A stretch of DNA of 50,463 nucleotides from Anaerolineaceae bacterium (GCA_021107195.1 JAIOTF010000013.1:1-50463); one strand, 5' to 3'. Positions 7,099 through 46,168 are shown, counted from the stretch's first letter. The notes: generated by a model from the sequence alone, not told the origin. Made by a program: numbers and translations.

Positions 7099-7118
7099 TA
7101 TCTGTCTTATGGGTGCGG

Positions 7119-7127: not shown

Positions 7128-7349
7128 GGAGACAGCTTTTTAACCGTACCGCGCCAGAGTTTTTCTCAATGTTTGATTGTGTAAAATCATGTCTTAAACC
7201 AATTGTCTTTGACCTCTGGGGTGCAAAAGCACTGGCAGGGTTAAGGGCGATTCTTTTTAAGATAGCAGCAAATCGGATCATTTGATCCGTAAAAGAAATG
7301 TGCCACAGCCCGCAATGGGTGGTGATATGATGATATTTGGGAGCAGAAC

Positions 7350-9460: not shown

Positions 9461-9536
9461 TCGTTCTTGCAGTGGGATGCAGGAAAAACACGGAATTATT
9501 GGAAGAAAAAAATAACAGACAAACGGAGAATAACCG

Positions 9537-11221: not shown

Positions 11222-11223
11222 GT

Positions 11224-12222: not shown

Positions 12223-12224
12223 GT

Positions 12225-13550: not shown

Positions 13551-13585
13551 CCTGTGAATACAATGCCAAATATTGGAAAGCAAAG

Positions 13586-18624: not shown

Positions 18625-18926
18625 AATACTTTAAAGTGGCTGCTTGCGCCTCATTTTGGGATAGGATGGCTGAGAAAAAGGGGATTCTTCCTGATTTCTC
18701 ATGAAATTCTTTTCTGAATCAGTGTTTTTGGCATACATACTGCACTATAACAGATGGAGTTCTTTGTCTATTTACAGGACGAGTTTTACCAAAAATCTAC
18801 TATGATTTTTGATAAAACAGGCTATACTATAGATTAAGGAAAAGGTTAAGGGACTTGAATTGCGGTCTTTTATTAAAAGGACAGAAAAGTTTAAGTGGAC
18901 GTATGTATTGCAATAGGAGGATGAAC

Positions 18927-20471
18927 ATGAAGACCCAAAAATTGTTTTACCGGACGGCAACTCTGCTCGTGGTGTTGTGTTTGGCCCTGGCAGCTTCCAC
19001 ACCAGCGGTCGCAAAAGCTCCCGCCGTACCTGCACAGGCCGGAGCGGCGTTGATGTCGTTGCAAGCCTCTGCAGCATCTGTTAACGTGGGCGACACCTTC
19101 AATGTGACCGTACAGGTGGTAGCCGGCGTTCAGGAAGTGGATACGGTGCAAGCCAGTATCGACTTTGACCCGAATTATCTGGAGGTCGTTGCCCCGCCGA
19201 CTTCAAGCGGTGTCCTCACTACACCTCTCCAGAATGTCTATGACAATTCCCTCGGCACCGTGGATTTCGGTGCGGGTTTGTTGGGTAGTTCCATTTCGGG
19301 GACGTTTTCTGTGGTCACTGTCCAGTTTCGGGTGAAAGCTGCAACCAGTGGCACGACCCTTTCCTTCCATTCAGGTTTGCCGCGTGAGACCAACGTGCTC
19401 TATCAGGGCAGTTCTGTCTTTGGCGGCGCAACGGGTACCACCATTGCCGTAACGGGCAGCGGCGGGCCAACCCCAACCCCTGGACCAAACCCCAATCCCA
19501 ATCCCAATCCTTATCCGTATCCTTATTATTATCCTTACTATTACGGAAATATTCCCACCTTCGGTATCCTTTCGGTAATAGAGGATGATACGGTTACGGT
19601 GCAAACTTATAACTTCCCCGCTAATCGGGACTTCATTGTCCGCATGGGGCCCTATGGTGGATACGGCGTCGGCGGTATTGAGGTTGCTACCCTGAATTCC
19701 GGCACAGGCGGCTCATTCCAGGCCACTTTTGACATTCCGGATTCATTAAAGGGCAGTTATCAGATTGCGGTACGCATGGATAGCACCACTGGAGGCTACT
19801 ACAGCTTCAACTGGTTCTATAACAACACCAGTACCTCATCCGGTGGTTCCTACATTCCGACCGGGATTCCATATACAGACGTGATCAGCGTTGTTTCTGA
19901 TTCGACTGTTACTTTACAGACCTACAACTTCCCACCTAATCTTGATTTCACAGTGCGGATTGGTGCATACGGTACATACGGCATCAATGGTACCGTTGTT
20001 GCCACGACCAATTCCGGTACGGGGGGGGCCTTCCAGGTGACTTACAATATTCCTGACGCACTCAAGGGCAGCAGTATGCTCTCGATCCGTCTGGAAAACC
20101 TCGCTACCGGGTATTATGCCTACGATTGGTTTTATAATGCCGATGGTGGGGGGTATACACCGCCAGGCGGCAGCCTGCCGAACTACACAGGTTTCCCTTA
20201 CACAAGTGTAACCAATGTGGTCAAGGATACATCTGTAACGTTGCAAACCTACAATTTTCCGGCGAATCTCGACTTCACAGTACGGGTTGGCCCATACGGT
20301 ACATATGGGGTCAATGGTGTCGTAGCTGATACGATCAACTCCGGTACAGGCGGTTCTTTCCCGGTAACGGTCAGTATCCCCGCCCAGTATGTTGGTACGC
20401 CGATGCTGTCCATTCGCTTTGAAAATGCAGCTTCAGGATACAATGCTTATGACTGGTTTTATAATCAGTAA
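18927..20471 (+). CDS. Secreted protein: signal peptide, cohesin-like domain, Pro-rich linker, then three tandem copies of an unrecognised ~95-109 aa domain
   Basis: ORF 18855-20471; AGGAGG precedes ATG 18927. Signal peptide MKTQKLFYRTATLLVVLCLALAASTPAVAKA. Cohesin-like segment VNVGDTFNVTVQVVAGVQEVDTVQASIDFDPNYLEVV...VTVQFRV. Linker GPTPTPGPNPNPNPNPYPYPYYYPYYY. Three repeats share TV(T/L)QTYNFP.N.DF.VR.G.YG.YG..G..VAT.NSGTGG.F...IPD.LKG......R.....GYY.(F/Y).WFYN. Confidence 0.8.
   Translation: MKTQKLFYRTATLLVVLCLALAASTPAVAKAPAVPAQAGAALMSLQASAASVNVGDTFNVTVQVVAGVQEVDTVQASIDFDPNYLEVVAPPTSSGVLTTPLQNVYDNSLGTVDFGAGLLGSSISGTFSVVTVQFRVKAATSGTTLSFHSGLPRETNVLYQGSSVFGGATGTTIAVTGSGGPTPTPGPNPNPNPNPYPYPYYYPYYYGNIPTFGILSVIEDDTVTVQTYNFPANRDFIVRMGPYGGYGVGGIEVATLNSGTGGSFQATFDIPDSLKGSYQIAVRMDSTTGGYYSFNWFYNNTSTSSGGSYIPTGIPYTDVISVVSDSTVTLQTYNFPPNLDFTVRIGAYGTYGINGTVVATTNSGTGGAFQVTYNIPDALKGSSMLSIRLENLATGYYAYDWFYNADGGGYTPPGGSLPNYTGFPYTSVTNVVKDTSVTLQTYNFPANLDFTVRVGPYGTYGVNGVVADTINSGTGGSFPVTVSIPAQYVGTPMLSIRFENAASGYNAYDWFYNQ
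19545..20468 (+). repeat. Three tandem in-frame coding repeats (19545-19862, 19863-20189, 20190-20468) inside the cohesin protein gene
   Basis: By-eye alignment of the three translated segments shows a conserved core (see the CDS entry). The copies are diverged at the DNA level, so this is an old domain triplication. Confidence 0.8.
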
Positions 20472-23194: not shown

Positions 23195-23613
23195 AGTTTT
23201 TTTCAATCATCTGTGCGCATCACAAAATTCATCATTCTATGTGCGATGATGATTACGGAAATGGTTGCATGCTCTGTACCTGCTTTGTTGATTCCCGGGT
23301 CCGAAAAGTTCATTCTTCTTAATCAGTGAAAATTTGGTATGATTAACAATATATTTGGGGAAACCTCGGTTATCATTTGTATTGTACTTTGATATTTAGT
23401 AGGGATGTTTTGCTTGTTTTTTGTGGTCAGATTGGTATACTTAATTAGATAGAGTTTTAACCATGAGTACTTTGTATCAAGCCATTGCTGAAATTGGCAT
23501 ATTTGTTGCAAGTAATGGTGGGAGGAACCTTTAGTATTTATCCTTAGAATTACCGATATAGGGAGATGTGAAAGGTATTCACATCGTCGGGCAATTTGTC
23601 CAGGAGGAGTTAG

Positions 23614-25749
23614 ATGAAGACATTGAAAATCGCAGTTTTGATTGCCATGTTAGTGAACATGGTCTTTCTCACCGGGAGTGCGCCGCTTGATGCGGGGCCT
23701 GTTGTCCCGGATGTGGTAGAACCACCGGCAAAGATATCTCCTCGCCCGGCAGCGGTTCAGGGGACTGGTTCGCAGACTGTCAATGGCTGGCCCCCAACCA
23801 ATTATGGCGGTTCAGGCGTGGCGACCAACCCTTCATATCCCAACCGTGTCATTTTGAATGGTTATGTTGGTGATTATGCCTGGGCGTTGTACGTCTTTAC
23901 CCTGCCGCCCGAAGTAGCTGTTGATGGCACAAACTTGCTGGATCTCACTATTGGATTCTATGGCGGTGATTTCAATGCTGGCGGTGATCCGCCCGCAATT
24001 GAATTGTGGAATTACAATACGAGCGGGTATGCTACCAGCGTTGACGCAGCTTATGAAGCCACTGGCTGGCACATGATTAACACCACTGCCTTGGCGGCTG
24101 ATCCTGTTTCGGATTATGTCGATGCCAATGGTCAAGTCTGGGTACGCATCCGCACCTACCCGGGCGTTTCCGCTTTTGTGGATAATGTTAAGGTGAGCTA
24201 TATCTATAATAAGGCGCCCAATCCGCCGATCCTGGTTACGCCAGCGGATCACTCTATCAATATTTCCACATATCCCACTTTCACATGGGACGAGAACAGT
24301 AATGATATCAGCGTCAGTTATTCAGTGTATTTGCAGCGCTTTGGCGACCCCAACTTTACTATCGTTCCCGGTTGTACCGACGTTTTTGGTTCAAGCTGTA
24401 CGCTGACCGGTTTTCCGGTTGCGGGCACGCCTTTGCTCCCCGGTTGGGCCTATGACTGGAAAGTGAGCGCCAAAGATGTCAGCAATTACACGGTCTTCAG
24501 CACCACTACCAGGCAGTTCACCACTTACGGTACTTGCCATGCGTTGACTTTCAATGTGTTTGGTAATTCCGGCGTCGCACCGTTGACATCGCCGATAAGT
24601 TCTTCGGGATGTCCGGATAATCATTACTATGCCGGAACCGTGGTCAATTTGACCGCACAGCCTGATATGGGCAAAGAAGTGTTCAGTTGGACGAACACGG
24701 ACGATGATACTCTTGAGGGTTTGACCAATACGGTTACCATGCCGAATGCTGCTCATGCAGTTGACATTGTATATGAACCGTCCTGTTATCTTTTGACCGC
24801 TGCCTATACTGGCACTGGTCTTGATCCTACGGCCAGCCCGCTGCGCTCTTCACCCACCTGTGACCCGTTGGGCGATGGCTATTTCATTTATGATGAAGCC
24901 ATAACCATGACTGCATATCCAGACCTGCCCTTGTGGTATCTGGCAAGCTGGACTGGTACATCTGGCGCTTTCAACAACACTTTCACCATGCCGCCCTATG
25001 ATCACACTGTAACGGCTAATTACTCACAGGCCTGCTATTCATTGACCCTTACGCATAACGGTAACGGCGCCAATCCTATTGCCAATCCAACCATGTCTGC
25101 TGGCTGTGATCCCGGAAAATACTTGTCCGGCGAAGCCATTACATTGAACGCCACCCCGGACTTTGGCTATTCGGTGAGCGGCTGGACGGGCACGGATAAC
25201 GATACCAGCACCAATAGCACCAATACACTGACCATGCCCAATTTCAATCAGAATGCGTCGGTGACCTATGCAGTAGCAGGCGCAACTGCCACGATCAACG
25301 GCAGCGTTAGTCTGACTGGCCGCCCGATACCGCCTAACAATCAATGGTTGACCAACCTGACCATCAAGCTGCTTTCCCCCGGTACATCCACGGTGCATTA
25401 CACTTTCACTGTCAACACGGATAATATGGGCGAATTCAGCATCCCCGGTCTGATCCCGGGAACCTACGACATTCTCACCAAGGGTGCAACCACGCTGCAG
25501 AACAAGATATCTTCAAAGGTGATTGCCGACGGCTTGAATGCCTTTACAATGGGAACCCTCAAAGAAGGCGATTCAAACAATGACAATTATGTCAATGCCA
25601 CCGACTTTTCCTTGTTGGCTGCTTCCTATGGTAAGTGCCTGGGGACGACTGGCTACAATGATTATGCCGATTTCAATAATGACAACTGCGTGACCGGGGC
25701 TGACTTCTCCTTGTTGGCCACGAACTACGGTCTTGGCGGACAGTGGTAA
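23614..25749 (+). CDS. Secreted multi-domain surface protein with a C-terminal type-I dockerin
   Basis: CCAGGAGGAG RBS and a signal peptide MKTLKIAVLIAMLVNMVFLTGSA. An FN3-like segment is followed by three ~83-aa repeats (C..LT......G..P.....S..C....Y..G..+.+TA.PD.G....W.GT......T..TMP......V.Y) that resemble Listeria-Bacteroides/InlB B-type repeats. Then come a PEGA/CarboxypepD_reg-like segment and a duplicated Ca-binding dockerin motif GDSNNDNYVNATDFSLLAASYG ... DFNNDNCVTGADFSLLATNYG. Confidence 0.85.
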   Translation: MKTLKIAVLIAMLVNMVFLTGSAPLDAGPVVPDVVEPPAKISPRPAAVQGTGSQTVNGWPPTNYGGSGVATNPSYPNRVILNGYVGDYAWALYVFTLPPEVAVDGTNLLDLTIGFYGGDFNAGGDPPAIELWNYNTSGYATSVDAAYEATGWHMINTTALAADPVSDYVDANGQVWVRIRTYPGVSAFVDNVKVSYIYNKAPNPPILVTPADHSINISTYPTFTWDENSNDISVSYSVYLQRFGDPNFTIVPGCTDVFGSSCTLTGFPVAGTPLLPGWAYDWKVSAKDVSNYTVFSTTTRQFTTYGTCHALTFNVFGNSGVAPLTSPISSSGCPDNHYYAGTVVNLTAQPDMGKEVFSWTNTDDDTLEGLTNTVTMPNAAHAVDIVYEPSCYLLTAAYTGTGLDPTASPLRSSPTCDPLGDGYFIYDEAITMTAYPDLPLWYLASWTGTSGAFNNTFTMPPYDHTVTANYSQACYSLTLTHNGNGANPIANPTMSAGCDPGKYLSGEAITLNATPDFGYSVSGWTGTDNDTSTNSTNTLTMPNFNQNASVTYAVAGATATINGSVSLTGRPIPPNNQWLTNLTIKLLSPGTSTVHYTFTVNTDNMGEFSIPGLIPGTYDILTKGATTLQNKISSKVIADGLNAFTMGTLKEGDSNNDNYVNATDFSLLAASYGKCLGTTGYNDYADFNNDNCVTGADFSLLATNYGLGGQW

Positions 25750-25763
25750 GTTTCTTTAGATCT

Positions 25764-26378
25764 ATGAGTATCAAAGCAGCGCCAGGTTTCCTGGCGCTGC
25801 TCTTTCTGTTATCAGCCTGTCAACCCCAGGTCGAGGTAGAAGAAGCAGAACCATCTGCTTTGCCCGTGGTAACTGTTACACCAGTAGTGTTGGCTGCCGA
25901 AACAGCAGAGAAAGAACAGCATATTGCCCAGCCTCCTGAAAAAACAGCCGCTTTTTTTCTGGAATTACAGGACGAGCTGGTACAGGCTGGAGAAGAATTT
26001 GTAGTTTGTGTTCTTGTTGACACGGGCGGCCAGGAGGTGGATACAATCCAGGTCAGTTTGAATTTTGACTCCAAGCTGTTAGAAGTGGTTGAACTCCGAC
26101 CCGGCGAAGTTTTCGATACAGAGCTGCAATCCATGTTTGATAACCAGGCCGGAATGATTGATTATGCTGCCGGTTTACTGGGAAGCAAACGAAGCGGGCA
26201 AGTGGAAGTTATGCAAATTGAATTGAAAGCACTGCAAGAAACCGCAGCCAGTACTTCGCTCTCATTCAATTTTGGCCTCCCGCGTGAAACCGGCGTCTAC
26301 CTGGAAGGCTACTCGGTGCTTAAAGAAGATGGAGCCCAGGATTTTGTCATCCCACTGGAAGATGCTCCTGGCGAATAA
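25764..26378 (+). CDS. Lipoprotein with a cohesin-like domain (paralogue of the cohesin module in 18927-20471)
   Basis: ORF 25743-26378 (GTG); ATG is at 25764. Lipobox LLFLLSAC. EFVVCVLVDTGGQEVDTIQVSLNFDSKLLEVV...MIDYAAGLLGS...LSFNFGLPRETGVY aligns by eye with FNVTVQVVAGVQEVDTVQASIDFDPNYLEVV...TVDFGAGLLGS...LSFHSGLPRETNVLY. Confidence 0.8.
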   Translation: MSIKAAPGFLALLFLLSACQPQVEVEEAEPSALPVVTVTPVVLAAETAEKEQHIAQPPEKTAAFFLELQDELVQAGEEFVVCVLVDTGGQEVDTIQVSLNFDSKLLEVVELRPGEVFDTELQSMFDNQAGMIDYAAGLLGSKRSGQVEVMQIELKALQETAASTSLSFNFGLPRETGVYLEGYSVLKEDGAQDFVIPLEDAPGE

Positions 26379-26450: not shown

Positions 26451-26583
26451 TATTCAATTGTGAGTCACAGGTGGAGAGCGTTCGCGCAAAAGTCAACCAG
26501 CTCCATTTCATCCGTGCTTTTCAATTAACTTCATTTGTGGTAATCTTATTTTTCAGTTATCCCCATTGCAGGAGGAACACCCT

Positions 26584-28707
26584 GTGCAAAAACGCCCGAA
26601 AATTTCTTTTGAGCTTATTCTTGTCCTCATCGTGCTGGTGATCCACATCTCCATGGCGGTGCGCCCGCCCAACAGTGTCATGAACTGGTTCATCGCCGAT
26701 GACGTATTCTATTATTTCAAAACCGCCCAAAATATTGCCGCGGGGAGCGGCGTGACCTTTGATGGCATTGCCCAATCCAATGGCTTTCATCCTTTATGGA
26801 TGTTGATCTGTATTCCTGTCTTTGCTCTTGCAAACACAACAAATCTCATCCTCCCTTTACGCATCATTATGCTCGTCCTGGGCTTGTTCAGTGCCGGAAC
26901 GGGCGTCTTTTTGTATCGCTTGCTCAAGAAAGTAACCTCGCGGGAAATTGCTGCTGTTGTCTCGCTGGTCTGGGTACTTTCCCCCACTGTGCATGCCACC
27001 GTTACCCGCCTCGGCCTCGAAACGGGCGTGAATGCCTTCTTTATTGTATTGTTACTTTATTTGTTTGCCAATTGGGAAGAACGGCAGCGCCAGGGCCAAC
27101 CCGGTACCTGGAAGCAGGTCCTCTGGCTGGGGCTTGTGGCCGTTCTCACCCTGTACAGCCGTCTTGATAACAGCTTTCTGGTCTGCATCGTCGGTGCCTG
27201 GATTGTTCTCCGTAGCAGCAGTATTGACCGCTCCCTGTTTGTTGGCGAACTGCTCTCCACCGGATTGGCAGTTTTTCTGGCGTTTGTGCTTCGCCTGGGA
27301 TTAGGCAATGCTTATTACCAAATGGTCTCAGCCATGATCCTCATGTTAGTCGCTGCTATGGCCATCCGCGCGCTTTTTCATTATCTGTTCGGCTTGTACA
27401 ATCGTTCATTTCTGCATCAGGCAAGTGTGAAAAACATTGTATTGCGCATAGCCGTTTCGACTGCTGCTGGTACGGCTGCGATCACCGTGCTGGTCATGGC
27501 GCTCATCCGCATGGGCCGCTTGACCAGCTTCCCGCGCTCGGCTTTGCTCATCGAATTTATTCTCTCGCTCATCTTTGCTGCAGCGCTGCGCTTTATCGTG
27601 CGCAAGTGGGGTGTTCAGCCAGCCGCTGCGGAACCTGCCGTAAGCGGATATGGTTTGAAACAGGTCTTGCAGTTCAATGAGCTGCGCCTCGAAAACTGGA
27701 AGTTGTTTTTTACTCGGTTTGCCGCCTATTTCCTGCCCCTGGGCGCTGCGCTTGGTGCGTACATGGCCTACAACCATGCGAAATTCGGCACCTCCACCCC
27801 TGTCAGCGGGCAGATCAAACGCTGGTGGGGCACCATTTATACTGTTTACGGCCGGCCCAAATCAGACTTGTGGGGTGTATTGGGTTTCGACAAGAACGGC
27901 TCATGGCGCATCATCACTGATCCCATCTATGAATTAGCCAAGACCATGGCTGAGAATCGCGGTTTGGAATCAGGAAGCAGTCTCTATTCGGGCATCGTTG
28001 TCGCGGGTATTGTGCTTATCCTTGCCTTTGCGCTCGCGATTCTTGCCCTGAACCGCAAATATACAGCTTCGGCCTGGAAGGGTTTGGGTTTGATGCCCCT
28101 GTGGGCTGGCAGCATGATCCAGATGGCTAATTACACCATGACGGGTTATGTGGCGGCAAAAGCCTGGTATTGGGTAGGCCAGATGCTGTTTGCTACGTTG
28201 ATCCTGGCTATCATGGCCGAGATCGTCTGGCGTAAGCTGCAAGCCACCAAACTTGATAAGCGCATCCTGCAAGCCCTGCCAGCGATTATTTCTGTGATCC
28301 TGGTTGTGGGTTATGTGAATTATTCTATGGAGCTTGTCCCGCCTACCGTTTCCCCGGAAAATGAAGAAGTTTATCTGGGCGGCGCTCATGGTCTGGAAAC
28401 CTATACCGAGCCGGGTTCCCTGATCGGTTCAACCGGCGGGGGAGTACTCGGCTATTTCACCCAGGGTCGCACTATCGTCAATCTGGATGGCCTGATCAAC
28501 AGCTATGATTATTACCTGTTGATGCAGGAAGGCAGAGCCAGCGAGTATCTGGACGAAATTGGCCTGGACTATCTGTATGGCGCGCGCTACGTGCTGGAAG
28601 AAAGCGAACCGTATTTCAACACCTTCCACGGCCGCACCGAATATATCGGAGAGGTGGTCGGTTCAGCGCTGATGCACTACCTGCCGGAGGATCAAGCCCA
28701 ACCATAA
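26584..28707 (+). CDS. Large polytopic membrane protein, putative GT-C-fold glycosyltransferase
   Basis: ORF 26566-28707 (TTG). AGGAGG lies 8 nt upstream of GTG 26584. The first periplasmic loop carries FIADDVFYYFKTAQNIAAGSGVTFDG..SNGFHPLW, an acidic DD..YY motif of the kind seen in GT-C/oligosaccharyltransferase-like enzymes. There are more than 12 hydrophobic helices and a C-terminal soluble domain. Confidence 0.55.
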   Translation: MQKRPKISFELILVLIVLVIHISMAVRPPNSVMNWFIADDVFYYFKTAQNIAAGSGVTFDGIAQSNGFHPLWMLICIPVFALANTTNLILPLRIIMLVLGLFSAGTGVFLYRLLKKVTSREIAAVVSLVWVLSPTVHATVTRLGLETGVNAFFIVLLLYLFANWEERQRQGQPGTWKQVLWLGLVAVLTLYSRLDNSFLVCIVGAWIVLRSSSIDRSLFVGELLSTGLAVFLAFVLRLGLGNAYYQMVSAMILMLVAAMAIRALFHYLFGLYNRSFLHQASVKNIVLRIAVSTAAGTAAITVLVMALIRMGRLTSFPRSALLIEFILSLIFAAALRFIVRKWGVQPAAAEPAVSGYGLKQVLQFNELRLENWKLFFTRFAAYFLPLGAALGAYMAYNHAKFGTSTPVSGQIKRWWGTIYTVYGRPKSDLWGVLGFDKNGSWRIITDPIYELAKTMAENRGLESGSSLYSGIVVAGIVLILAFALAILALNRKYTASAWKGLGLMPLWAGSMIQMANYTMTGYVAAKAWYWVGQMLFATLILAIMAEIVWRKLQATKLDKRILQALPAIISVILVVGYVNYSMELVPPTVSPENEEVYLGGAHGLETYTEPGSLIGSTGGGVLGYFTQGRTIVNLDGLINSYDYYLLMQEGRASEYLDEIGLDYLYGARYVLEESEPYFNTFHGRTEYIGEVVGSALMHYLPEDQAQP

Positions 28708-34148: not shown

Positions 34149-34174
34149 GTTTAATTGGTGATCGCTGATTGCAT

Positions 34175-34212
34175 GGGCTGTCTCAAATCATCTGAGACAG
34201 CCCGTTTTTCTT
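34175..34212 (+). terminator. Rho-independent terminator after the DUF3048 gene
   Basis: 11-bp stem GGGCTGTCTCA / TGAGACAGCCC, followed by GTTTTTCTTC. Confidence 0.8.
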
Positions 34213-34361
34213 CTCCGTGCCTTCAGCGTACGTATATTATGAACATCACACAGTATCCAAGGGGAACTTAATTCCGACTTCGACATTCCGTCAGGCCAGC
34301 CCCGTAGTATACTATGGGCAGCGTTCTTCGGAACCAAACTCCCATACAAAGGAGCAGTGGA

Positions 34362-35183
34362 ATGAAATTGTTGATTGCAGCCGATATGGAAGGTATTTCG
34401 GGTGTCGTGGCCTGGGATCATGTGTCCGCCAAACATCCAGAGTATACTCGTTTTCGAAAAATGATGACAGCCGACGTGAATGCAGCCATTGAAGGTGCAT
34501 TGAAAGCCGGTGCAGATGAAATCCTGGTGGCCGATGGGCATGGCTCTGGCAATAATATCCTCATCGAAGATCTTAACCCCGTTGCCAGTCTCCATTCCGG
34601 CAATGCTGCCCCCTTTGCGATGGTACAGGGCGTGGGCAGTGACGTGGATGCTGCTATGTTTATCGGTTACCATGCCCGCGTTGGCTCTACACCCGCGGTT
34701 TTGGATCATACCTGGTCCAGCAGAGTTGTTGCCAATGTGTGGCTTAATGGCAAGATCATTGGCGAAACCGGATTAAATGCTGCTGTTTGTGCGCATTACG
34801 GTGTCCCGGTGATCATGGTTTCCGGTGACCAGACATTGGCATCCGAAGTCAATAAGACTATTCCCGGTGTCGAGACCGCAATTGTCAAAATCGCTACCAG
34901 TCACCAATCTGCACAATGCTATTCATTGAAGGAATCGCGCGGGCGCATTCGTGAAGCCTCGGAACGCGCTGTGCAGCGTCTCAAGAAAGGAGAGGGGCCA
35001 AAGCCGTATCAGATTTCTAAACCAATTACTGTCACAGTGGAACTCAAGACCTCCGGTATGGTGGATGGCTCTTCATTGATACCCAATGTGAAACGTCTGG
35101 ATGCCCGCCGCGTGGAATTTGAATGCACGGATATGCTTCATGCTTACCATGCCTTCCGTTCTTTGGTTGGTATGACCTTCTAA
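34362..35183 (+). CDS. dppA: D-aminopeptidase, peptidase family M55 (DppA-like)
   Basis: ORF 34314-35183; AAGGAG lies upstream of ATG 34362. The family-typical N-terminus is MKLLIAADMEGISGV, with internal motifs VADGHGSG and GYHA. Confidence 0.85.
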   Translation: MKLLIAADMEGISGVVAWDHVSAKHPEYTRFRKMMTADVNAAIEGALKAGADEILVADGHGSGNNILIEDLNPVASLHSGNAAPFAMVQGVGSDVDAAMFIGYHARVGSTPAVLDHTWSSRVVANVWLNGKIIGETGLNAAVCAHYGVPVIMVSGDQTLASEVNKTIPGVETAIVKIATSHQSAQCYSLKESRGRIREASERAVQRLKKGEGPKPYQISKPITVTVELKTSGMVDGSSLIPNVKRLDARRVEFECTDMLHAYHAFRSLVGMTF

Positions 35184-35244: not shown

Positions 35245-36351
35245 ATGCCATATCCTCTAAAACTGGACTTGCTCCACGGCAGCCTGGAATTTCCTGCTTA
35301 TCTTCCTGATGCCACTTTTGGCGTCGTTCGGGCAGTGGATTCAGTGGATCTGGAGGACAGCCAAATCCAGGCCGTGGTGATGAACAGTTTTCATCTCATG
35401 CAGCGTCCGGGTTCCTCCACAGTGACTGCTCTCGGCGGGCTGCATAAGATGAGCGGTTGGCAGCACCCGATCATTACCGATTCGGGTGGATTTCAAGCTT
35501 ATTCCCTCATTCGTCAGAATCCAAAATTTGGCAAGCTCACCGAAAAAGGTCTTGTTTTCCAGCCTGAGGGCAGCTCGCGCAAATATCAGTTAACCCCCGA
35601 GAAAAGCATTCAGCTTCAGCTCAGTTATGGCACGGATGTTGCCATTTGTCTCGATGACTGCACTCACGTCGATGCCCCGTATGAAGAGCAATGTCTTTCT
35701 GTGGAGCGCACTATTGCCTGGGCGCGCCGCAGCCGGGATGAGTATGACCGTCTTATGGCACAAAAGAATCTGCCCGAAGCACAGCGCCCCCTATTGTTTG
35801 GTGTCATCCAGGGCGGCGGCGAACCTGAACTGCGCCGCCAATGCGCCGAAGCTTTGCTTGAGATTGGCTTTGATGGCTATGGCTTTGGCGGTTGGCCCCT
35901 GGACGGCGAGGGCAATCTGCTTACTGACATTCTTGCTTACACCCGCTCCCTCATTCCCGAAGAATATCCAATCCATGCGCTGGGAATCGGTCACCCCAAG
36001 AATGTCCTCCAGTGTTACGAGTTAGGCTATGGCATTTTCGATTGCGCCATGCCCACTCGCGATGCGCGTCATGGCCGTCTTTATACCTTTGTCCATCCGG
36101 CGGATGGCCCTGGGGCAGGTCTGGACGGTGATTGGCTTAAGTATCTCTACATTAATGACAAGCAGCATATTCGCGACAGCCGCCCTGTGCATCCTTACTG
36201 CGATTGTTTAGTCTGCCGTAATTATTCACTGGGTTATTTACGCCACTTATTCAAGATGAACGATAGTCTTTATCACCGGCTCGCTACGTTGCACAATCTG
36301 CGCTTTATGACTCAGCTTATGCAGCGCATTCGGACGAGATTTCATGGCTGA
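35245..36351 (+). CDS. tgt: TGT-family base-exchange enzyme (tRNA-guanine transglycosylase-like), divergent from canonical bacterial Tgt
   Basis: ORF 35218-36351; ATG is at 35245. Conserved TGT motifs: ITDSGGFQ, LDDC, GVIQGG, IFDCAMPTRDARHG, and the zinc site CDCLVCRNYS...LHNLRF. Non-canonical motifs: YLPDAT instead of FMPVGT, GFGGWPLDGEG instead of GGLAVGE, and ALGIGHP instead of LMGVGKP. Confidence 0.8.
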   Translation: MPYPLKLDLLHGSLEFPAYLPDATFGVVRAVDSVDLEDSQIQAVVMNSFHLMQRPGSSTVTALGGLHKMSGWQHPIITDSGGFQAYSLIRQNPKFGKLTEKGLVFQPEGSSRKYQLTPEKSIQLQLSYGTDVAICLDDCTHVDAPYEEQCLSVERTIAWARRSRDEYDRLMAQKNLPEAQRPLLFGVIQGGGEPELRRQCAEALLEIGFDGYGFGGWPLDGEGNLLTDILAYTRSLIPEEYPIHALGIGHPKNVLQCYELGYGIFDCAMPTRDARHGRLYTFVHPADGPGAGLDGDWLKYLYINDKQHIRDSRPVHPYCDCLVCRNYSLGYLRHLFKMNDSLYHRLATLHNLRFMTQLMQRIRTRFHG

Positions 36352-37153
36352 TACTGCTCGCCTGGAGGAGCTGGTGATTGCCGTACGCCGCGGCACCCGC
36401 TACCGTACGATCCATGAAGACCTTATACGCCGGGTGGGAGCGCGGGAACTGGAGAAACGTTCCAGTTTCAAGGAAGCCGTCAAAACCACCCGCAGCAAGT
36501 TGCATCAGATTGGTGGAGCTTATCTTGAGAGCGGTGCTTCTTTTGATGGCTGGCGAGACAAACTTGCTGATTTGCCACCTTCAGCTACAGATCCCCTTGT
36601 GCTGAAATTTTGCCGTCAGGCAATGGCGCAGCATGCTTCCACACGCGAACGAATACCCATTCTGGAAGAGTTCTTCCATCAGGTACTGGCACCGTTGGGG
36701 GAGATACATTCTGTACTTGATTTGGCTTGCGGTCTCAATCCCCTTGCCCTGGCCTGGATGCCTCTTGCAGACGATGTTGTTTACCATGCTTGTGATATTT
36801 ATCAAGATATGCTCGACTTTGTCAGCCAATTCCTCAGTCACTGCGGCGTTGAAAATCACATCTCGATGTGTGATTTGTCCGTCGCCTGTCCGCCGCAAAC
36901 TGTGCAGGTGGCCTTTTTGTTAAAAACCATTCCTTGTCTGGAACAGTTGGATAAATCCATAGGTCTCCGACTGCTGGATGACATTTCCGCGGAGCATCTT
37001 CTGGTCTCTTTTCCCGCCCGCAGTTTGGGCGGACGGGCCAAAGGCATGGTGCAAAATTATGAAAATCATTTCAATCAGCTTGTTGCAGGGCGTGGTTGGG
37101 AGATTCAACGTTTTGAATACAGTACAGAGCTGGCCTTTCTGGTCAGCCGGTAA
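36344..37153 (+). CDS. FmrO/Arm/Rmt/Kgm-family 16S rRNA methyltransferase (m7G1405 class), copy 1
   Basis: Motifs HASTRERIPILEEFF, SVLDLACGLNPLAL, YHACDIY, AFLLKTIPCLEQ and VSFPARSLGGRAKGM. From memory, these align with ArmA HSSTNERVATLNDFY, SILDFGCGFNPLAL, YHAYDID, VFLLKMLPVLKQ and ISFPIKSLSGKEKGM. It overlaps the tgt-like stop by 8 nt. Confidence 0.8.
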   Translation: MADTARLEELVIAVRRGTRYRTIHEDLIRRVGARELEKRSSFKEAVKTTRSKLHQIGGAYLESGASFDGWRDKLADLPPSATDPLVLKFCRQAMAQHASTRERIPILEEFFHQVLAPLGEIHSVLDLACGLNPLALAWMPLADDVVYHACDIYQDMLDFVSQFLSHCGVENHISMCDLSVACPPQTVQVAFLLKTIPCLEQLDKSIGLRLLDDISAEHLLVSFPARSLGGRAKGMVQNYENHFNQLVAGRGWEIQRFEYSTELAFLVSR

Positions 37154-37159
37154 GAGAAC

Positions 37160-37996
37160 ATGATAAAGCTCACTGAACAGCAGCAGGAAGACCTGGCGGC
37201 CCAAATTTTCCAATCCCGTAAATATCGCGGTTTGAATATTCCACTCGCCACCGTGCAAAACCTGTTGACACAGGAAGCAGACAAGCATTCTTCCACCCGT
37301 GCCCTGGTCAAAGCCGTGCGGCACAAAATGCATAACATCGTTGCCCCCTATCTGGGCGATCCTGAATACAGCATGGCCGAGCGTTGTCTGCAGAAAGCTT
37401 TTGATAAACACGATCCTGCGGAGGTTCGTCTGGCTTGCTCACGCCTGATGGGGGCGCACGCTTCCACGCGGGAGAGGCTGCCTGTGCTTCAGGAGTTTTA
37501 TGATGCTATTTTTTCTACCATCGGTCGTCCGTCGGTGATCCTTGATCTCGCATGCGGCCTGAATCCACTAGCCTATCCCTGGATGAATTTACCCCTTTCC
37601 ACCCAGTATTGGGCCTATGACCTTCACCAGCCGCGGGTGGACATGCTCAACCGCTATTTTGGATTGCAAGGCTTGCAGCCCCTGGCACGCCATCAAGACA
37701 TCCTCGTAGAGCCACCGCAGATTGAAGCAGACGTGGCCTTCTTTTTCAAAGAAGCCCATCGATTCGAACAACGCCAACGCGGCTGCAACCGGGCTTTTTG
37801 GCAGGCAGTCAATTCCCGGATGCTGGTTGTAACCCTGCCAGCCGTCAGCCTAACCGGAAAGCATCAATTGGCTGACCAGCAGCGCAATCTGGTGTACACT
37901 ACGATTGACGATTTGCCCTGGCATGTGACTGAACTGTGCGTTGGCACAGAATTGATCTTCTGTATTGAAAAAGGTTATGGCGCGAAGAAAGAGTAA
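37160..37996 (+). CDS. FmrO/Arm/Rmt/Kgm-family 16S rRNA methyltransferase (m7G1405 class), copy 2 (diverged paralogue)
   Basis: IFQSRKYRGL (compare ArmA ILESKKYENL), HASTRERLPVLQEFY, VILDLACGLNPLAY, YWAYDLH, AFFFKEAHRFEQ and VTLPAVSLTGK. It starts 6 nt after copy 1. Confidence 0.8.
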   Translation: MIKLTEQQQEDLAAQIFQSRKYRGLNIPLATVQNLLTQEADKHSSTRALVKAVRHKMHNIVAPYLGDPEYSMAERCLQKAFDKHDPAEVRLACSRLMGAHASTRERLPVLQEFYDAIFSTIGRPSVILDLACGLNPLAYPWMNLPLSTQYWAYDLHQPRVDMLNRYFGLQGLQPLARHQDILVEPPQIEADVAFFFKEAHRFEQRQRGCNRAFWQAVNSRMLVVTLPAVSLTGKHQLADQQRNLVYTTIDDLPWHVTELCVGTELIFCIEKGYGAKKE

Positions 37997-39473
37997 GCAG
38001 CAATCCCCATTGAGCAGCGAAGAGATCCTCGAACAACAGATGGAGCGATTCCAGCCTTTGCTGGATGAAAAAGAATGGCTGCGTATGCGCGCAGAGCTTC
38101 AAATGCCTCTCTATCAGGCAGTGCGGGCCAACCCATTGAAAGTTGACCCCCAGCAGGCTATTCAGCGATGGGTGCGCAATTATGATTGGACCATTGAGGC
38201 CGTGCCATTTTGCTCCACGGGCTGGTGGATTTCTTCCAGTCCACAGCCGATCAGCCATCCTGTGGAGCACCGGCTGGGTGAGTATTACATTCAAGACGCA
38301 GCTTCGATGATGCCGGTGGAATTATTTGATTTCCAGGAGCTTGAAGCTCCTCTCATTCTCGATATGGCCGCCTCGCCAGGTGGCAAGACGACCCACATTG
38401 TCAGCCGCACAGGCGACCGTGGTCTTGTCATCGCCAATGACTCAAGCCGTGACCGCATCACTGCTCTGCGCCTGGTGATGCAGTCCTGGGGGGCGATCAA
38501 TATCGCTGCGACCCATTACCCGGGTGAAAAATATGGAGTCTGGTTCCCTGAAACCTTTGATCGGGTCTTGTTAGATGCACCCTGTTCCATGCAGGGATTG
38601 CGTGCCACCGAATCGCATAACCTGCGCACTATTTCGCAAAAAGAGCTTCTTTCTCTGGCGCGCCGTCAGGTGCGCCTCCTCACCAGTGCATTGCGGGCGG
38701 TCAAGGTCGGCGGGCAGGTGGTCTATGCTACCTGTACCCTTTCCCCGGAAGAGGATGAAGCTGTTCTCGATGCTGTCTTAAAGCGCTTTGCCGGCGCAGT
38801 GGAAGTTGTCAATCTCTCGCATCAATTCTCTGGGATAGGCAAGGCGCTCCCTGGTTATGGTGACCAGTCTTTTGATCCCACCGTGCAGGGGGCTGCGCGC
38901 CTCTGGCCGCACCGTTTTGGGACTGCTGGTTTTTTCACCGCTTTGCTGACCAAGACAGCTCCTTTTCCAGGCAGGCAGGATTCTCCACCTGCACGTCCCT
39001 TTGAGCGCACCGGACTGCGCTGGTTGACTCGCTCTGGTGAGGATGCTCTATTGGGGAGGATGCAAGATATGTACGGCATCAATTTTGAACCGGTGTTGGC
39101 GCAACAGGGTTTGACATTGTGGCAGCGTAATCAGCGTATCTTTGCTTTACCAGAGGCCTACCTTGACCATTTTGAGACTTTGCCGTTTCAATTCCTGGGG
39201 ATGCTGGTGGGCGAAGAGACTCCTTCCGGTTTTGCACCATCCTTTGAGTGGGTGGCTCGTTTTGGCCGCCAGGCGACCACTGGTACAGTAATCCTGACGC
39301 TTCAACAGGTCAGCGCCTGGCTGCGGGGAGAAAATATTCCTGGTCGTTTTGGCGGTCAGGATGACCGCGGCAAGGTGTTAATTGTCGTAGATGAAACCAA
39401 ACGTTTGTTGGGGAGGGGCAGGGTGCTCTCGGATCGACTCAAAAACCTGACGCCACCCAGACTGGTCTACTAA
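37977..39473 (+). CDS. rsmF: NOL1/NOP2/Sun-family rRNA m5C methyltransferase, RsmF (YebU)-like
   Basis: ORF 37965-39473; ATG 37977 overlaps the upstream gene by 20 nt. Motifs YYIQDAASMMP, ILDMAASPGGKTTHI, DRVLLDAPCS and YATCTLSPEEDE. The C-terminal extension ends RVLSDRLKNLTPPRLV, resembling the E. coli RsmF tail (RIGSRLKNSYPRELV, from memory). Confidence 0.8.
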   Translation: MARRKSKQQSPLSSEEILEQQMERFQPLLDEKEWLRMRAELQMPLYQAVRANPLKVDPQQAIQRWVRNYDWTIEAVPFCSTGWWISSSPQPISHPVEHRLGEYYIQDAASMMPVELFDFQELEAPLILDMAASPGGKTTHIVSRTGDRGLVIANDSSRDRITALRLVMQSWGAINIAATHYPGEKYGVWFPETFDRVLLDAPCSMQGLRATESHNLRTISQKELLSLARRQVRLLTSALRAVKVGGQVVYATCTLSPEEDEAVLDAVLKRFAGAVEVVNLSHQFSGIGKALPGYGDQSFDPTVQGAARLWPHRFGTAGFFTALLTKTAPFPGRQDSPPARPFERTGLRWLTRSGEDALLGRMQDMYGINFEPVLAQQGLTLWQRNQRIFALPEAYLDHFETLPFQFLGMLVGEETPSGFAPSFEWVARFGRQATTGTVILTLQQVSAWLRGENIPGRFGGQDDRGKVLIVVDETKRLLGRGRVLSDRLKNLTPPRLVY

Positions 39474-42952: not shown

Positions 42953-43010
42953 GATTTAGGCTACGTGAGTTTTGGCAGCATTCTCTCTATAGAGTTCTTT
43001 ACAGGTGGGT

Positions 43011-44744
43011 ATGGCTCGTAAGAAAAAGACCAAGAAAAAAAATAATCTTTTACCCATAATACCAGTCATTGTATTGGTGTTGATTTTCTTTTTTGCTTTT
43101 TTCAATGAAATCAAGATCGTTGTGGGTTTTTGGTGGTGGGTCATTACTGCCATTCCCAAAGTCATTCTGGGGATGGATATTGGAGTGATGTCACGCGGTG
43201 ATGATTTTTACCAGGTGCAAAGGATTGTCCGTTTTAATTTAATTATTGGCCTGGGTTTCGTTTTTGTTTTTTGGTTGTTCCTTGCTGCACTGCAATCCCT
43301 CCTGCCAATTTCATCTATCAGGGAAATATTTTCAACCATGCGTATTGTATTTCGCCATTTTCGGGGAAAGCAGGTTCGTATTGCGCGCGTGGTTGGCGGG
43401 CATAACGTTTCCCCTGAAGAAAAAATGCAGCGTAAGAAAAAGTTTTCGTTTATCACAAATTTGATGCTGGATGATGAAGATAAGAAAGTGAAGTTTGAAC
43501 GTGGAGTGATTCTGTTGGATTCGGACAGTGCAATAGCTTTGGAAGAAATGACATCTGCTCCTGATTTGGTACTCATTGCATGGCGTTGGTTGTTAAGAAC
43601 ACTAAGACTTTTAGATGATGATACACCTCGTGTTTGCGGACCGGGGCTGATTTTCATCCATCCTTGGGAGCGGGTACATTCTTTTGTTGATCTGCGCAAA
43701 CAAATCCGTTCCGAAACAGAGGTTGTTGCGCTTACGGGTGACGGAATCGAAATCCGATCTTTTGTATTTTCTCTCTTTAGTGTTGGCCGGCAGCCCAAAC
43801 CTTTGCAACTGGCTTATAATGACGGCTTAGGCGAGGAGAACTTTCAGGCGGTTACCTTTTTTGAAGAAAAAGGCCGATTATGTGTGACAGGCTTCAAGGA
43901 TGACCTTGCCCAGGATGATCGCAGCGAAGCCTATCATTTTGCCCGGGCTGCCGGGCGCATGGGCGAGCTTGGGGCCTATTTTAATCCGCAAGACCCCGGT
44001 GTCCGGCCCGTTTATGACCCCAACCGCGTGTTTAACGCTGTTTATGCCCGCGCCCGGAACGGTAGCAGCGACCTTATCCGTTGGGATGATCTACCCCTCA
44101 TCTTCACTAAAGATGCTTTCAAGGAAATGGCTTCACAATTTAATTTTGATGAAATGAGTAATCCTATAGGGAAGACTTGTTTGATGGACTTCAAGCAGCG
44201 TGTCAACACTGCTGTACGCAACCTCGGGGTATTGACTTATAGTGTCGTTGTGCATCAATCTGGTGAACCCCTCAAAAAGGGAAACAGTTATGATCCTGCA
44301 GAGCTGCTTTCAAGCCCCGTGCGGGACTTCACCACTCCAAAGGTGCTGCGCGAACGCGGCATTATGAATATTTACTCTGCTTTTACTGCCGTTACCCCCT
44401 GTCCGGATGCAATCTATCAACAGCGTCTTGATAACTGGCAAGCCCGCTTACAGCGCGATATTGATATGGTAACCGCAAGACGTGAATTGGAAGTGCGCAA
44501 TATTTACAGCCGCGCACGCAGTCAGGCACAGCAAGAATTATCTACTGCCCTGAATGATATATTGAAGGATCGACAATACTCGGAAGAAGCCATGGCATTG
44601 CTGGTATTCCAGGCATTGGAAGAATATGCCTGCAATCCTGAGACGCGTCAGCGGCTGCCTAATGAGGTCATCACCTTATTGCGCAACTTGCATGATCGTA
44701 TCCTGCCACCGGGCACAAACAGTTTTCCCTTCTTAAGGGACTGA
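43011..44744 (+). CDS. Membrane-anchored protein with a divergent SPFH/band-7-like domain (uncharacterised family), paralogue A
   Basis: ORF 43005-44744 (GTG); ATG is at 43011. It has an N-terminal poly-Lys stretch (ARKKKTKKKNN) and three hydrophobic helices. CGPGLIFIHPWERVHSFVDLRKQIRSETEVVALTGDGIEIRSFVFSLFSV matches the SPFH core pattern (GPGL.F..P....V..VDLR.Q.......V.T.D...+.V.....+++). The C-terminus is helical and Arg/Gln/Glu-rich. Confidence 0.6.
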   Translation: MARKKKTKKKNNLLPIIPVIVLVLIFFFAFFNEIKIVVGFWWWVITAIPKVILGMDIGVMSRGDDFYQVQRIVRFNLIIGLGFVFVFWLFLAALQSLLPISSIREIFSTMRIVFRHFRGKQVRIARVVGGHNVSPEEKMQRKKKFSFITNLMLDDEDKKVKFERGVILLDSDSAIALEEMTSAPDLVLIAWRWLLRTLRLLDDDTPRVCGPGLIFIHPWERVHSFVDLRKQIRSETEVVALTGDGIEIRSFVFSLFSVGRQPKPLQLAYNDGLGEENFQAVTFFEEKGRLCVTGFKDDLAQDDRSEAYHFARAAGRMGELGAYFNPQDPGVRPVYDPNRVFNAVYARARNGSSDLIRWDDLPLIFTKDAFKEMASQFNFDEMSNPIGKTCLMDFKQRVNTAVRNLGVLTYSVVVHQSGEPLKKGNSYDPAELLSSPVRDFTTPKVLRERGIMNIYSAFTAVTPCPDAIYQQRLDNWQARLQRDIDMVTARRELEVRNIYSRARSQAQQELSTALNDILKDRQYSEEAMALLVFQALEEYACNPETRQRLPNEVITLLRNLHDRILPPGTNSFPFLRD

Positions 44745-44758
44745 AGGTTAATCTTTTT

Positions 44759-46168
44759 ATGGTACAGCAGATACGAGAATTTTTCAACGAGATTAGGCAA
44801 GGGATCGCTCGTCTGCGCAACCGCTATCGCGGCCAGTTTTACCGTTTTTTGCAAGGCATGTGGGCCAATCCGGAATTAAACCGCCAGTTACAGTCATTCT
44901 TTGGTCTGTTTGCGATAATTTTTTTGGTTGTGATGTTGTCTTGTTTTACCATTTTGGGAGATCGACTGAATCCAGAACCTCTGGATGTTGGCAGCGTAGC
45001 CCAAAAAGTTCACGACACCAATCCTTTCTTTGCGCATGTTCCTCGGGGAATCCTGGAATTTTTTGTGCTGCGGGTCAGTGGCGAAACACTTCGCTACGCT
45101 ATCTTACCGCTTTTAGCGGTCATTCTCATTTTTATTGCCGGAGCTTATTTTGTGAAGGATGTTTACGACCTGGACACATTTGGTCAGGGGTTGCGCCACA
45201 TGGTTTCGGCAATGTTCGGTCTTTTCTATCCGAAATTACTTGTGGATGAAGGGGAAGTCAAGCTTGAGGATGGTAAGACCAACCTCTTGAATGCCCTTGG
45301 CGGGCCCGGGTATGTCTTGATCCAACCGGGGAATGTCGTCCAGTTCCGGCAGATTCGTGAATTGACTAACCCCTCCATGTCAGAGTCATATTTTTTGGCT
45401 CATTTTGAATATCTCGAACTACCGGTCAGTTTGGAAGACCAGATTGGTCACTCTCCATCAGCAGTTTATGAAACCCGTGATGGAATTTTGACGCGCTTCA
45501 GGGATATTCGCTACGGCTATCGCATCATGCCGGCAGACGACGGTTTCAAACGTTCTCCAGATCAACCTTATTCTTATGACCCAGTTGCATTAGAATCTTT
45601 TCTGTTTGAACGGAGTGTTGACGACGAGGGGCTGCGCACCTGGCAAAGGAATATTTCCTTTGCTATTGATGGGCCTATTCGTGCCTTTGTTGGTGAAAAA
45701 ACCATTGATTTCTTAATGGCCCCAGGCATTGATGAGCAGGAAGTCCGTCGCATCATTCGTACTCGGGTATTGAATGCCCAGCCTCTGCGAAAATTTGGGG
45801 CGGAATTACTCTGGATTGATATTGGTAAGATTGAATTGTTTCAATTTGGTGATCAGATCAATAGTAAACGAATCCAGCGATGGGCAGCAGACTGGAAGGG
45901 TGACGCCGATGTTACCCGTGCCTATGGGGAAGCGACAAAACGGGTGTTCCTGGAAATTGGCCGCGCAGAAGCCCAGGCAGAGGCCCTCAAGAGCATTGCC
46001 AAGTCACTTGGTGATGTTGATTGGCAGGACGATGAGGTATCCAACCTGCGGCGCATTTTGTTGAGCCGCACAGCACAGTTTTTGGAAACATTTCTTGAAA
46101 AACAACCTGAGGAACTCGATTGTCAAACCCGCACCCCGCCCCTGAATGGCGATAAAGAGGACAAATGA
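44759..46168 (+). CDS. Membrane-anchored protein with a divergent SPFH/band-7-like domain, paralogue B
   Basis: There are hydrophobic helices near the N-terminus. GGPGYVLIQPGNVVQF...LEDQIGHSPSAVYETRDGILTRFRDIRYGYRIMP, QPYSYDPVAL and GAELLWIDIGKIE are followed by AYGEATKRVFLEIGRAEAQAEALKSIAKSL. It aligns by eye with paralogue A (RPVYDPNRV; W.A.....D...A..E). Confidence 0.6.
   Translation: MVQQIREFFNEIRQGIARLRNRYRGQFYRFLQGMWANPELNRQLQSFFGLFAIIFLVVMLSCFTILGDRLNPEPLDVGSVAQKVHDTNPFFAHVPRGILEFFVLRVSGETLRYAILPLLAVILIFIAGAYFVKDVYDLDTFGQGLRHMVSAMFGLFYPKLLVDEGEVKLEDGKTNLLNALGGPGYVLIQPGNVVQFRQIRELTNPSMSESYFLAHFEYLELPVSLEDQIGHSPSAVYETRDGILTRFRDIRYGYRIMPADDGFKRSPDQPYSYDPVALESFLFERSVDDEGLRTWQRNISFAIDGPIRAFVGEKTIDFLMAPGIDEQEVRRIIRTRVLNAQPLRKFGAELLWIDIGKIELFQFGDQINSKRIQRWAADWKGDADVTRAYGEATKRVFLEIGRAEAQAEALKSIAKSLGDVDWQDDEVSNLRRILLSRTAQFLETFLEKQPEELDCQTRTPPLNGDKEDK

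Follow-up and report, generated by a model that had tools for sequence, protein, structure and literature searches.

Why should the chromosome of an Anaerolineaceae bacterium carry, in a single tightly packed operon, two relatives of the 16S rRNA methyltransferases that modify G1405, together with a tRNA-guanine transglycosylase (TGT) and an RsmF-like methyltransferase? The operon in question, tgt-fmr1-fmr2-rsmF, lies in a stretch of 50,463 nucleotides (GCA_021107195.1, JAIOTF010000013.1:1-50463), referred to here as the window, which comes from an Anaerolineae (Chloroflexota) chromosome. To our knowledge, 7-methylguanosine at position 1405 (m7G1405) occurs, as a costly resistance mark, only among aminoglycoside producers and pathogens by which it was acquired. 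Nevertheless, we favor, with a probability of roughly 0.6, a housekeeping operon of the Chloroflexota, chromosomal and vertically inherited, which serves the modification of the ribosomal decoding center and from which intrinsic resistance to 4,6-disubstituted aminoglycosides would be expected.

A first-pass annotation of the window had described four packed open reading frames (ORFs) here, encoding one TGT-family, two FmrO-family and one RsmF-like enzyme. The coordinates and overlaps that it gave agreed with the ORF listing and with the junctions read directly (Table 1), and profile searches yielded strong family matches for all four products. At the tgt/fmr1 junction, ATGGCTGA, the fmr1 ATG (36344) precedes the tgt stop codon (TGA, 36349-36351), resulting in an 8-nt overlap. 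A gap of 6 nt separates the TAA of fmr1 (37151-37153) from the ATG of fmr2 (37160), and the rsmF ATG (37977), shortly preceded by AAAAAGG, is located within fmr2 (TAA, 37994-37996), an overlap of 20 nt. The starts adopted for the 368-aa TGT and the 498-aa RsmF are those taken by gene callers in close relatives. In comparison with a 97%-identical relative, the ratio of nonsynonymous to synonymous substitution rates (dN/dS) was 0.05 to 0.19 over the four genes, all of which are under purifying selection.

Table 1. Coordinates of the operon and of other features of the window
Feature	Coordinates	Strand	Remarks
tgt	35245-36351	+	368 aa from ATG; ORF from GTG 35218, 377 aa
fmr1	36344-37153	+	269 aa; FmrO/Sgm/Rmt-family 16S rRNA methyltransferase
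fmr2	37160-37996	+	278 aa; FmrO-family methyltransferase, paralogue of fmr1
rsmF	37977-39473	+	498 aa from ATG; ORF from TTG 37965, 502 aa
Intrinsic-terminator-like hairpin, very strong	34173-34215	+	13-bp stem, T-rich tail; between DUF3048 gene and dppA-like gene
DppA-like M55 D-aminopeptidase gene	34362-35183	+	61 nt 5' of tgt
Wbp-like surface-polysaccharide cluster	540-15577		~20 kb from operon

The order of the genes and their junctions were next surveyed in relatives, using one genome per GTDB species. An Fmr1 relative was present in 332 genomes. The best 80 of these were all Chloroflexota, including the cultured Longilinea arvoryzae and Levilinea saccharolytica, apart from one metagenome-assembled genome (MAG) labelled Poribacteria. 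The order was counted in the 78 informative loci, i.e., those not interrupted by a contig end. In 74 of them, tgt was located immediately 5' of fmr1. The complete order tgt-fmr1-fmr2-rsmF was observed in about 40 loci and tgt-fmr1-rsmF, without fmr2, in 7 species loci; tgt-fmr1 alone was found chiefly in Ktedonobacteria and other non-Anaerolineae lineages. Conservation of the gene order, on which the first-pass annotation had made its reading depend, therefore extends across dozens of Chloroflexota species. The spacing was also informative: tgt and fmr1 overlapped in 53 of 69 loci and lay at most 30 nt apart in 63 of them (median, -4 nt), fmr2 and rsmF overlapped in 33 of 36, and the distance from fmr1 to fmr2 had a median of +9 nt and reached 2.6 kb. 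In two loci (L072 and L077), the fmr2-rsmF pair had moved as a unit away from tgt-fmr1. The operon consists of two tightly coupled pairs, tgt-fmr1 and fmr2-rsmF, with a looser link between them. Since the same junctions recur in relatives, the overlaps in the window are not due to chance. Moreover, identity to the window proteins co-varied between genes across loci (rho, 0.38 to 0.82), as expected under co-inheritance. Two further ORFs were seen around tgt in some relatives. A 356-aa ORF without family match lies between tgt and fmr1 on a 5.4-Mb Chloroflexota MAG contig (L001:6929-7999), and a conserved 126-aa ORF, with no Pfam or NCBIfam match, lies immediately 5' of tgt in L046 (4504-4884) and in L018, L027, L036, L055, L056, L063, L074, L148, and L154.

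Profile and structure searches assigned both middle proteins to the FmrO/Rmt family and identified the last one as an RsmF member. Against the FmrO profile (PF07091; gathering cutoff, 27 bits), Fmr1 scored 200.8 bits and Fmr2 150.3 bits, and both spanned positions 1 to 253 of 255. The best relative with a solved structure was Sgm, both for Fmr1 (aligned to Sgm residues 15-280; E = 1e-46; full length) and for Fmr2 (E = 6e-32). An AlphaFold model of Fmr2 (mean predicted local distance difference test [pLDDT] score, 92.3) had m7G1405 methyltransferases as its top 16 PDB matches, led by Sgm (template modeling [TM] scores, 0.82/0.87; root mean square deviation, 2.5 Å) and followed by RmtC, RmtB, RmtF, and ArmA. 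The N1/N2 helical region and the class I S-adenosylmethionine (SAM) methyltransferase fold were recognized in Fmr2 by the model and in Fmr1 by the alignment to Sgm; Pfam family and fold are those of Sgm, KgmB, GrmA, and FmrO and of ArmA and RmtA to RmtH. Fmr1 and Fmr2 are 29% identical to each other. The homologues of Fmr1 came overwhelmingly from Anaerolineae and other Chloroflexota, and many Fmr2 and some Fmr1 homologues are labelled "hypothetical protein" by NCBI. Chloroflexi homologues of m7G1405 enzymes already appear in a published tree legend as "uncharacterized" (bioRxiv 10.1101/712810).

In RmtC, docking on the 30S subunit involves K20, Y21, K43, K47, R50, and H54; catalysis and SAM binding involve Y60, S107, R111, D160, and K204; and K236, R241, and M245 belong to the loop that distorts helix 44 (bioRxiv 10.1101/712810; PMC10288597). 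Several Fmr1 residues share the RmtC numbering (K43, K47, R50, H54, and Y60), and these, as well as Y20 and K194 (equivalent to K204), were invariant among Fmr1 orthologues, with the KY pair kept. The HASTRER segment and the Asp residues of motifs I and II were also kept, and the SAM-binding residues were invariant among orthologues. In the Fmr1 loop, SLGGRAKGM, R226 occupies the K236 position, and R231 and M235 correspond to R241 and M245; the latter two equivalents were invariant or almost so. Fmr1 thus appears to retain every group of residues that RmtC needs for 30S docking, for SAM binding and catalysis, and for helix-44 distortion, and its predicted product is m7G1405.

Fmr2 exhibits a different pattern. 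In the orthologue alignment, its docking residues Y22 and H58 were invariant and K21, R54, and K56 nearly so; the SAM-binding HASTRER, D129, D154, D180, and K197 (the K204 equivalent) were invariant, and the Y60 equivalent was kept. In place of LLKTIPCLEQ, Fmr2 carries FFKEAHRFEQ (FFKEAHRFEQRQRG), which is equally conserved. The loop SLGGRxKGM is replaced by SLTGxHxL, with no GM and no conserved equivalent of K236, R241, or M245. These features suggest that Fmr1 and Fmr2 dock on the same 30S surface, and that Fmr2 may engage helix 44 otherwise, with another target or substrate state. The first-pass annotation had called both proteins G1405-class enzymes. By sequence and fold, this holds for both as family membership; for Fmr2, given the missing K236, R241, and M245 equivalents, G1405-class function is putative. 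In a neighbor-joining tree, which used partial reference sequences taken from alignments and whose deep branching is weakly supported, Fmr1 (99/100) and Fmr2 (97/100) were each monophyletic and were weakly joined as sisters (61/100), with Sgm, RmtB, RmtC, and RmtF outside both. A decaying duplicate was considered for Fmr2 and ruled out by its dN/dS of 0.19, its own clade, and its invariant private motifs and SAM-binding residues.

It is improbable that Fmr2 modifies no new site, serving either as a redundant second enzyme for G1405 or as a catalytically silent helper of RsmF in the binding or remodeling of helix 44. The coupling of fmr2 to rsmF in 33 of 36 loci, the joint movement of the pair, the retention of docking residues (equivalents of KY, K47, R50, and H54) and of Y60, and the loss of the RmtC-essential K236, R241, and M245 would all be compatible with such a role. 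Nevertheless, invariant SAM-binding residues and an invariant K204 equivalent are unexpected in a noncatalytic protein, the motifs peculiar to Fmr2, KEAHRFEQRQRG, are strongly conserved in a gene under purifying selection, and the seven loci without Fmr2 keep fmr1-rsmF, which implies that RsmF is independent of Fmr2.

The last protein has the three-domain build of E. coli RsmF (YebU), with an RsmF N-terminal domain (PF17125, 47 bits), an RsmB/F catalytic domain (PF01189, 130 bits), and a C-terminal PUA-like domain. Its residues 38 to 497 aligned with residues 30 to 469 of the E. coli enzyme (199 bits), a full-length alignment, and both catalytic Cys motifs, DAPCS and ATCT, were read in the translation. 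The predicted product is 5-methylcytidine at position 1407 (m5C1407). It differs from E. coli RsmF in being co-translated with an FmrO paralogue.

The first-pass annotation had offered, as one option, a module dedicated to decoding-center modification, and the clusters of relatives lent this independent support. Beside the operon we observed rsmI, for 2'-O-methylation of C1402 in 16S rRNA, in about 32 loci (TIGR00096, 188 to 234 bits; cutoff, 167.9), rsmE, for 3-methyluridine at U1498, in about 22 (NF008692, 197.7 bits; cutoff, 196), and the gene for a YhhQ/COG1738 queuosine-precursor transporter in about 23 (TIGR00697, 116 bits versus 51). The fully colinear arrangement yhhQ-rsmI-tgt-fmr1-fmr2-rsmF-rsmE was found in L034, L045, and L070, and more than 14 loci had the rearranged order ...rsmF-rsmE(-)-yhhQ-rsmI(-). 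Therefore, the ancestral cluster covers four positions at the top of helix 44 (C1402, G1405, C1407, and U1498) and, through the linkage of tgt with yhhQ, also encodes the enzyme and the importer for the wobble base of the tRNAs decoded at this site. Outside this phylum, ArmA hinders RsmI at C1402, RmtD hinders one C1402 methylation in P. aeruginosa, and Sgm and RmtC were reported to hinder RsmF at C1407; in E. coli, interference with RsmF has been reported for some acquired m7G1405 enzymes (PMC3923132). The enzymes co-encoded in the Chloroflexota cluster are hence those that clash with acquired m7G1405 enzymes elsewhere (PMC3923132). Some loci, L066 (4211-4912 and 12299-12805[-]), L117, and L141 (5600-6316 and 12007-12690[-]), carry two RsmI paralogues with 31 to 38% mutual identity; on TIGR00096, the copy adjoining tgt scored about 190 bits and the other about 225 to 234 bits.

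The first gene of the operon encodes a distinct subfamily of bacterial-type TGT. The first-pass annotation had termed it divergent, and this is borne out: the protein passes the Tgt equivalog cutoff (TIGR00430, 322.6 bits; cutoff, 306.75; PF01702, 315 bits) and lacks the canonical pocket. It is 34 to 35% identical to the Zymomonas mobilis and Thermotoga maritima enzymes, and its AlphaFold model (pLDDT, 88) superposes on bacterial TGT with a TM score of about 0.85. As in the Z. mobilis and E. coli enzymes, Asp102, Asp156, Asp280, Cys158, the CxCxxC...H zinc site, and Arg286/Arg289 are kept; these two arginines contact the anticodon loop in Z. mobilis Tgt. The motifs TDSGG, LDDCT, FDxAMPTR, and CDCxxC...H were conserved in 69 orthologues. 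A further likeness is the linkage of the relatives' tgt to a YhhQ-type queuosine-precursor transporter gene. In contrast, the preQ1 pocket signature GGLAVGE (the Leu231/Ala232 switch, Val233, and Glu235) is absent and is replaced by GGWPLD, with Pro at the Ala232 position and Glu235 lost, together with two insertions, and the Chloroflexota tgt adjoins an FmrO gene rather than queA or yajC-secDF.

GGWPLD was invariant in close Anaerolineae homologues, and GGWP[LF]D, followed by a variable residue, was present in all but one of about 195 TGT matches with a readable motif. Among representatives at 50% identity, the approximately 45 best-scoring clusters were GGWP-like, and the canonical L[AS]VGE appeared only below about 254 bits. 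The homologues came overwhelmingly from Anaerolineae and other Chloroflexota. The motif deviates both from the preQ1 signature and from that of queuine salvage, GG[LS][AS]G (PMC11570991). In the Z. mobilis enzyme, the peptide bond between Leu231 and Ala232 flips, exposing its NH with guanine and its carbonyl with preQ1, and Glu235 stabilizes both states (PMC3660597). Since a proline in place of Ala232 lacks the NH and Glu235 is missing, this switch cannot work in the same way in the GGWP-type TGT, whose pocket is predicted to lose exactly the element that reads guanine N7.

To follow the linkage from the TGT side, metagenome contigs were searched with the TGT motif GFDGxGxGGWPLD alone as the seed, not with FmrO. 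This yielded 120 loci, 108 of which could be judged downstream. Fmr1 followed immediately 3' in 92 of the 108, a divergent FmrO in 2 more (L181 and L196), and Fmr1 further 3' in another 4, so that an FmrO gene lay 3' of the TGT gene in a total of 98 of the 108, with TGT identities as low as 46%. A few distant lineages have, in place of FmrO, other 3' partners for the GGWP-type TGT gene: a MiaB/RimO-like radical-SAM protein (L162:2915-3997) and an RNase-like protein with NYN and OST-HTH domains (L168:10449-11441[-] and L179:5399-6184).

Gene fusions were also found. A 628-aa TGT::FmrO ORF, composed of a GGWPLD-type TGT (Pfam, 9-356) and an FmrO domain (376-621), occurs in two independent NCBI assemblies (L207:6001-7887, GCA_048633415.1; L209:6001-7887, GCA_030614715.1) as copies that differ by one residue, and is preceded by an overlapping rsmI. 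Its FmrO domain has Arg at the His54 equivalent and Phe at the Tyr60 equivalent. A 710-aa RsmI::TGT fusion (L208:633-2765, Logan SRR21151030), on a contig seen in two samples, is followed by an FmrO gene with an 8-nt overlap. The fusions are rare, being confined to two lineages among about 200 loci. Such fusions are nonetheless classic evidence for functional association.

As described above, the operon would co-produce enzymes for two RNAs that meet at the decoding center. In the mechanism that we propose, Fmr1 would dock on the mature 30S subunit in the manner of Sgm and RmtC and make m7G1405 at the top of helix 44, and RsmF, acting two nucleotides further on, would make m5C1407. Fmr2, the old paralogue whose gene is coupled to rsmF, may methylate another nearby position or act on a different assembly state. 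Tgt would exchange G34 of tRNAs with GUN anticodons for a salvaged 7-deazaguanine, using a nonstandard base pocket. As a side effect, cells would be constitutively and highly resistant to 4,6-disubstituted deoxystreptamine aminoglycosides.

Several observations weigh against this housekeeping interpretation. We infer substrates, modified sites, and phenotypes from sequence, fold, and context; what we observed is how the genes are built, to which families and folds their products belong, the conservation of residues, synteny, and junctions, and purifying selection. The Rmt equivalog cutoff (NF000466, 250 bits) is missed by Fmr1 (218.8) and Fmr2 (170.2), and RsmF, although aligned over the full length of the model, scores 275.9 bits on NF008898 against an equivalog cutoff of 588. 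These three proteins are therefore divergent members rather than close copies of characterized enzymes. None of rsmI, rsmE, and yhhQ is present within the 50 kb of the window, whose lineage retained only the four-gene core. A second tgt was not seen in 1.7 Mb of locus sequence, a sample that is uninformative genome-wide. Finally, the tgt-fmr1 overlap, the co-occurrence of GGWPLD and FmrO, and the fusions exceed the usual effect of a shared theme; together they suggest a tighter functional link between TGT and FmrO, for which the housekeeping interpretation does not account.

That link would be explained by the main rival interpretation, in which TGT and Fmr1, joined by RsmI in some lineages, would act together in one pathway or complex on a shared RNA target, perhaps at or near the decoding center, instead of performing two separate tasks. 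For example, N7-methylation could turn guanine into a good leaving group that is then exchanged for an imported 7-deazaguanine, or TGT could be recruited to the 30S subunit. Besides the overlap of the tgt stop with the fmr1 start in 53 of 69 species, the 98 of 108 metagenome loci, and both fusions (the RsmI::TGT one being followed by FmrO), this idea draws on the linkage of yhhQ in about 23 loci and on the pocket change, which deletes the guanine-N7-reading element (PMC3660597). We nonetheless judge it unlikely. The TGT is still above the Tgt equivalog cutoff and keeps the catalytic Asp, the zinc site, and Arg286/Arg289. We know of no UGU motif adjoining G1405, which also counts against a shared target. 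A 7-deaza base cannot take an N7-methyl, so that the order of the steps would be constrained. In addition, fusions are limited to two lineages, genes for modification enzymes of different RNAs cluster elsewhere too, and there is no biochemical precedent. If true, a target shared by TGT and FmrO would connect guanine base exchange with rRNA methylation for the first time.

A target other than 16S rRNA for Fmr1, Fmr2, or both, such as a tRNA, would likewise explain the linkage to tgt, and tight coupling to a tRNA enzyme and scores under the Rmt equivalog cutoff could be read in this sense. We consider it quite improbable: the N-terminal residues with which RmtC contacts helices 44, 45, and 27 do not vary in Fmr1 and are mostly preserved in Fmr2, Fmr1 retains the helix-44 loop residues, and rsmI, rsmF, and rsmE belong to the same cluster. 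Finally, it is very unlikely that the FmrO genes are the usual resistance determinant, i.e., producer self-protection or a horizontally acquired cassette. In favor of this view, their nearest family members are Sgm, a producer enzyme, and the Rmt enzymes of pathogens. We rejected it, since the 50-kb window contains no aminoglycoside biosynthesis genes (as the first-pass annotation had remarked of the surroundings), transposase, or integrase, its GC content is even, and its sugar genes look like a set of the Wbp type. Furthermore, dozens of Chloroflexota species share the chromosomal synteny, Fmr1 and Fmr2 each form a monophyletic clade, and the genes sit among the housekeeping rsmI, rsmE, rsmF, and tgt.

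On the favored interpretation, that of a housekeeping operon for the decoding center, an m7G1405 enzyme appears to be a core gene of a whole phylum, co-translated with enzymes with which it clashes elsewhere. This setting differs from that of the producer and pathogen enzymes: the genes are chromosomal and vertical in a nonproducer phylum, among housekeeping rRNA and tRNA modification genes; there are two old paralogues, of which Fmr2 has its helix-44 loop remodelled; and coupling to tgt is translational, with a fusion in one lineage. If confirmed, m7G1405 would be a native decoding-center modification in Chloroflexota, which would provide a natural system with coexisting G1405, C1402, and C1407 methylation and both a large environmental reservoir and a candidate evolutionary source of the Arm/Rmt resistance enzymes. 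Fmr2, whose helix-44 loop is altered, may methylate a new site in rRNA, and a TGT without the N7-reading switch, welded to FmrO, points to undescribed chemistry or to cooperation between base exchange and methylation. In the literature searched, we found no description of the operon, of the paralogue Fmr2, of GGWP-type TGTs, or of either fusion. Clustered or fused modification enzymes for neighboring sites are known, such as RlmKL on 23S rRNA. The Chloroflexota cluster resembles these cases in that several modification enzymes for one functional center are encoded together and sometimes fused, and differs in placing, beside rRNA enzymes, a base-exchange enzyme for which only tRNA and DNA substrates are known.

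Regarding the transcription unit, the hairpin 5' of the dppA-like gene probably forms its upstream border, and no terminator was seen between the dppA-like gene and tgt. Given this hairpin and the 61-nt spacing to tgt, the unit is therefore probably dppA-tgt-fmr1-fmr2-rsmF. The dppA-like gene is also found 5' of tgt in L003, L004, L007, L010, L011, L020, L083, and L085, and it probably heads the unit in the window's lineage only. A promoter scan found no site on the + strand and returned fewer matches than in shuffled sequence. In the window and nine related loci, an Rfam scan revealed no preQ1 riboswitch; its sole match was a 6S RNA gene (RF00013, 77 bits) in L017 (1399-1574[-]), a few kb 5' of the operon.

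Elsewhere in the window, the surface-polysaccharide cluster (Table 1) encodes two UDP-sugar dehydrogenases, an epimerase, a Wzx-type flippase, GT2 and GT4 transferases, a hexapeptide acetyltransferase, a DegT aminotransferase, and a GFO/IDH/MocA oxidoreductase, and resembles the Wbp pathway for diacetamido-uronic acid. Other genes of the window encode glycogen phosphorylase, oxaloacetate decarboxylase and carboxyltransferase, a DUF3048 protein, and a GAF-GGDEF cyclase. The neighbors of the operon are ordinary, being genes of metabolism or of surface polysaccharides. Several large ORFs of 469 to 803 aa, at 5551-7098, 13586-15577, 20795-23206(-), 26566-28707, and 43005-46168, had no Pfam match at E values up to 0.01 (for 20795-23206, up to 0.0001). 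Proteins with cohesin/dockerin domains are encoded at 18855-20471, 23614-25749, and 25743-26378, one of them also InlB B-repeat-like, which suggests a cellulosome-like cell-surface assembly in this Anaerolineae bacterium.

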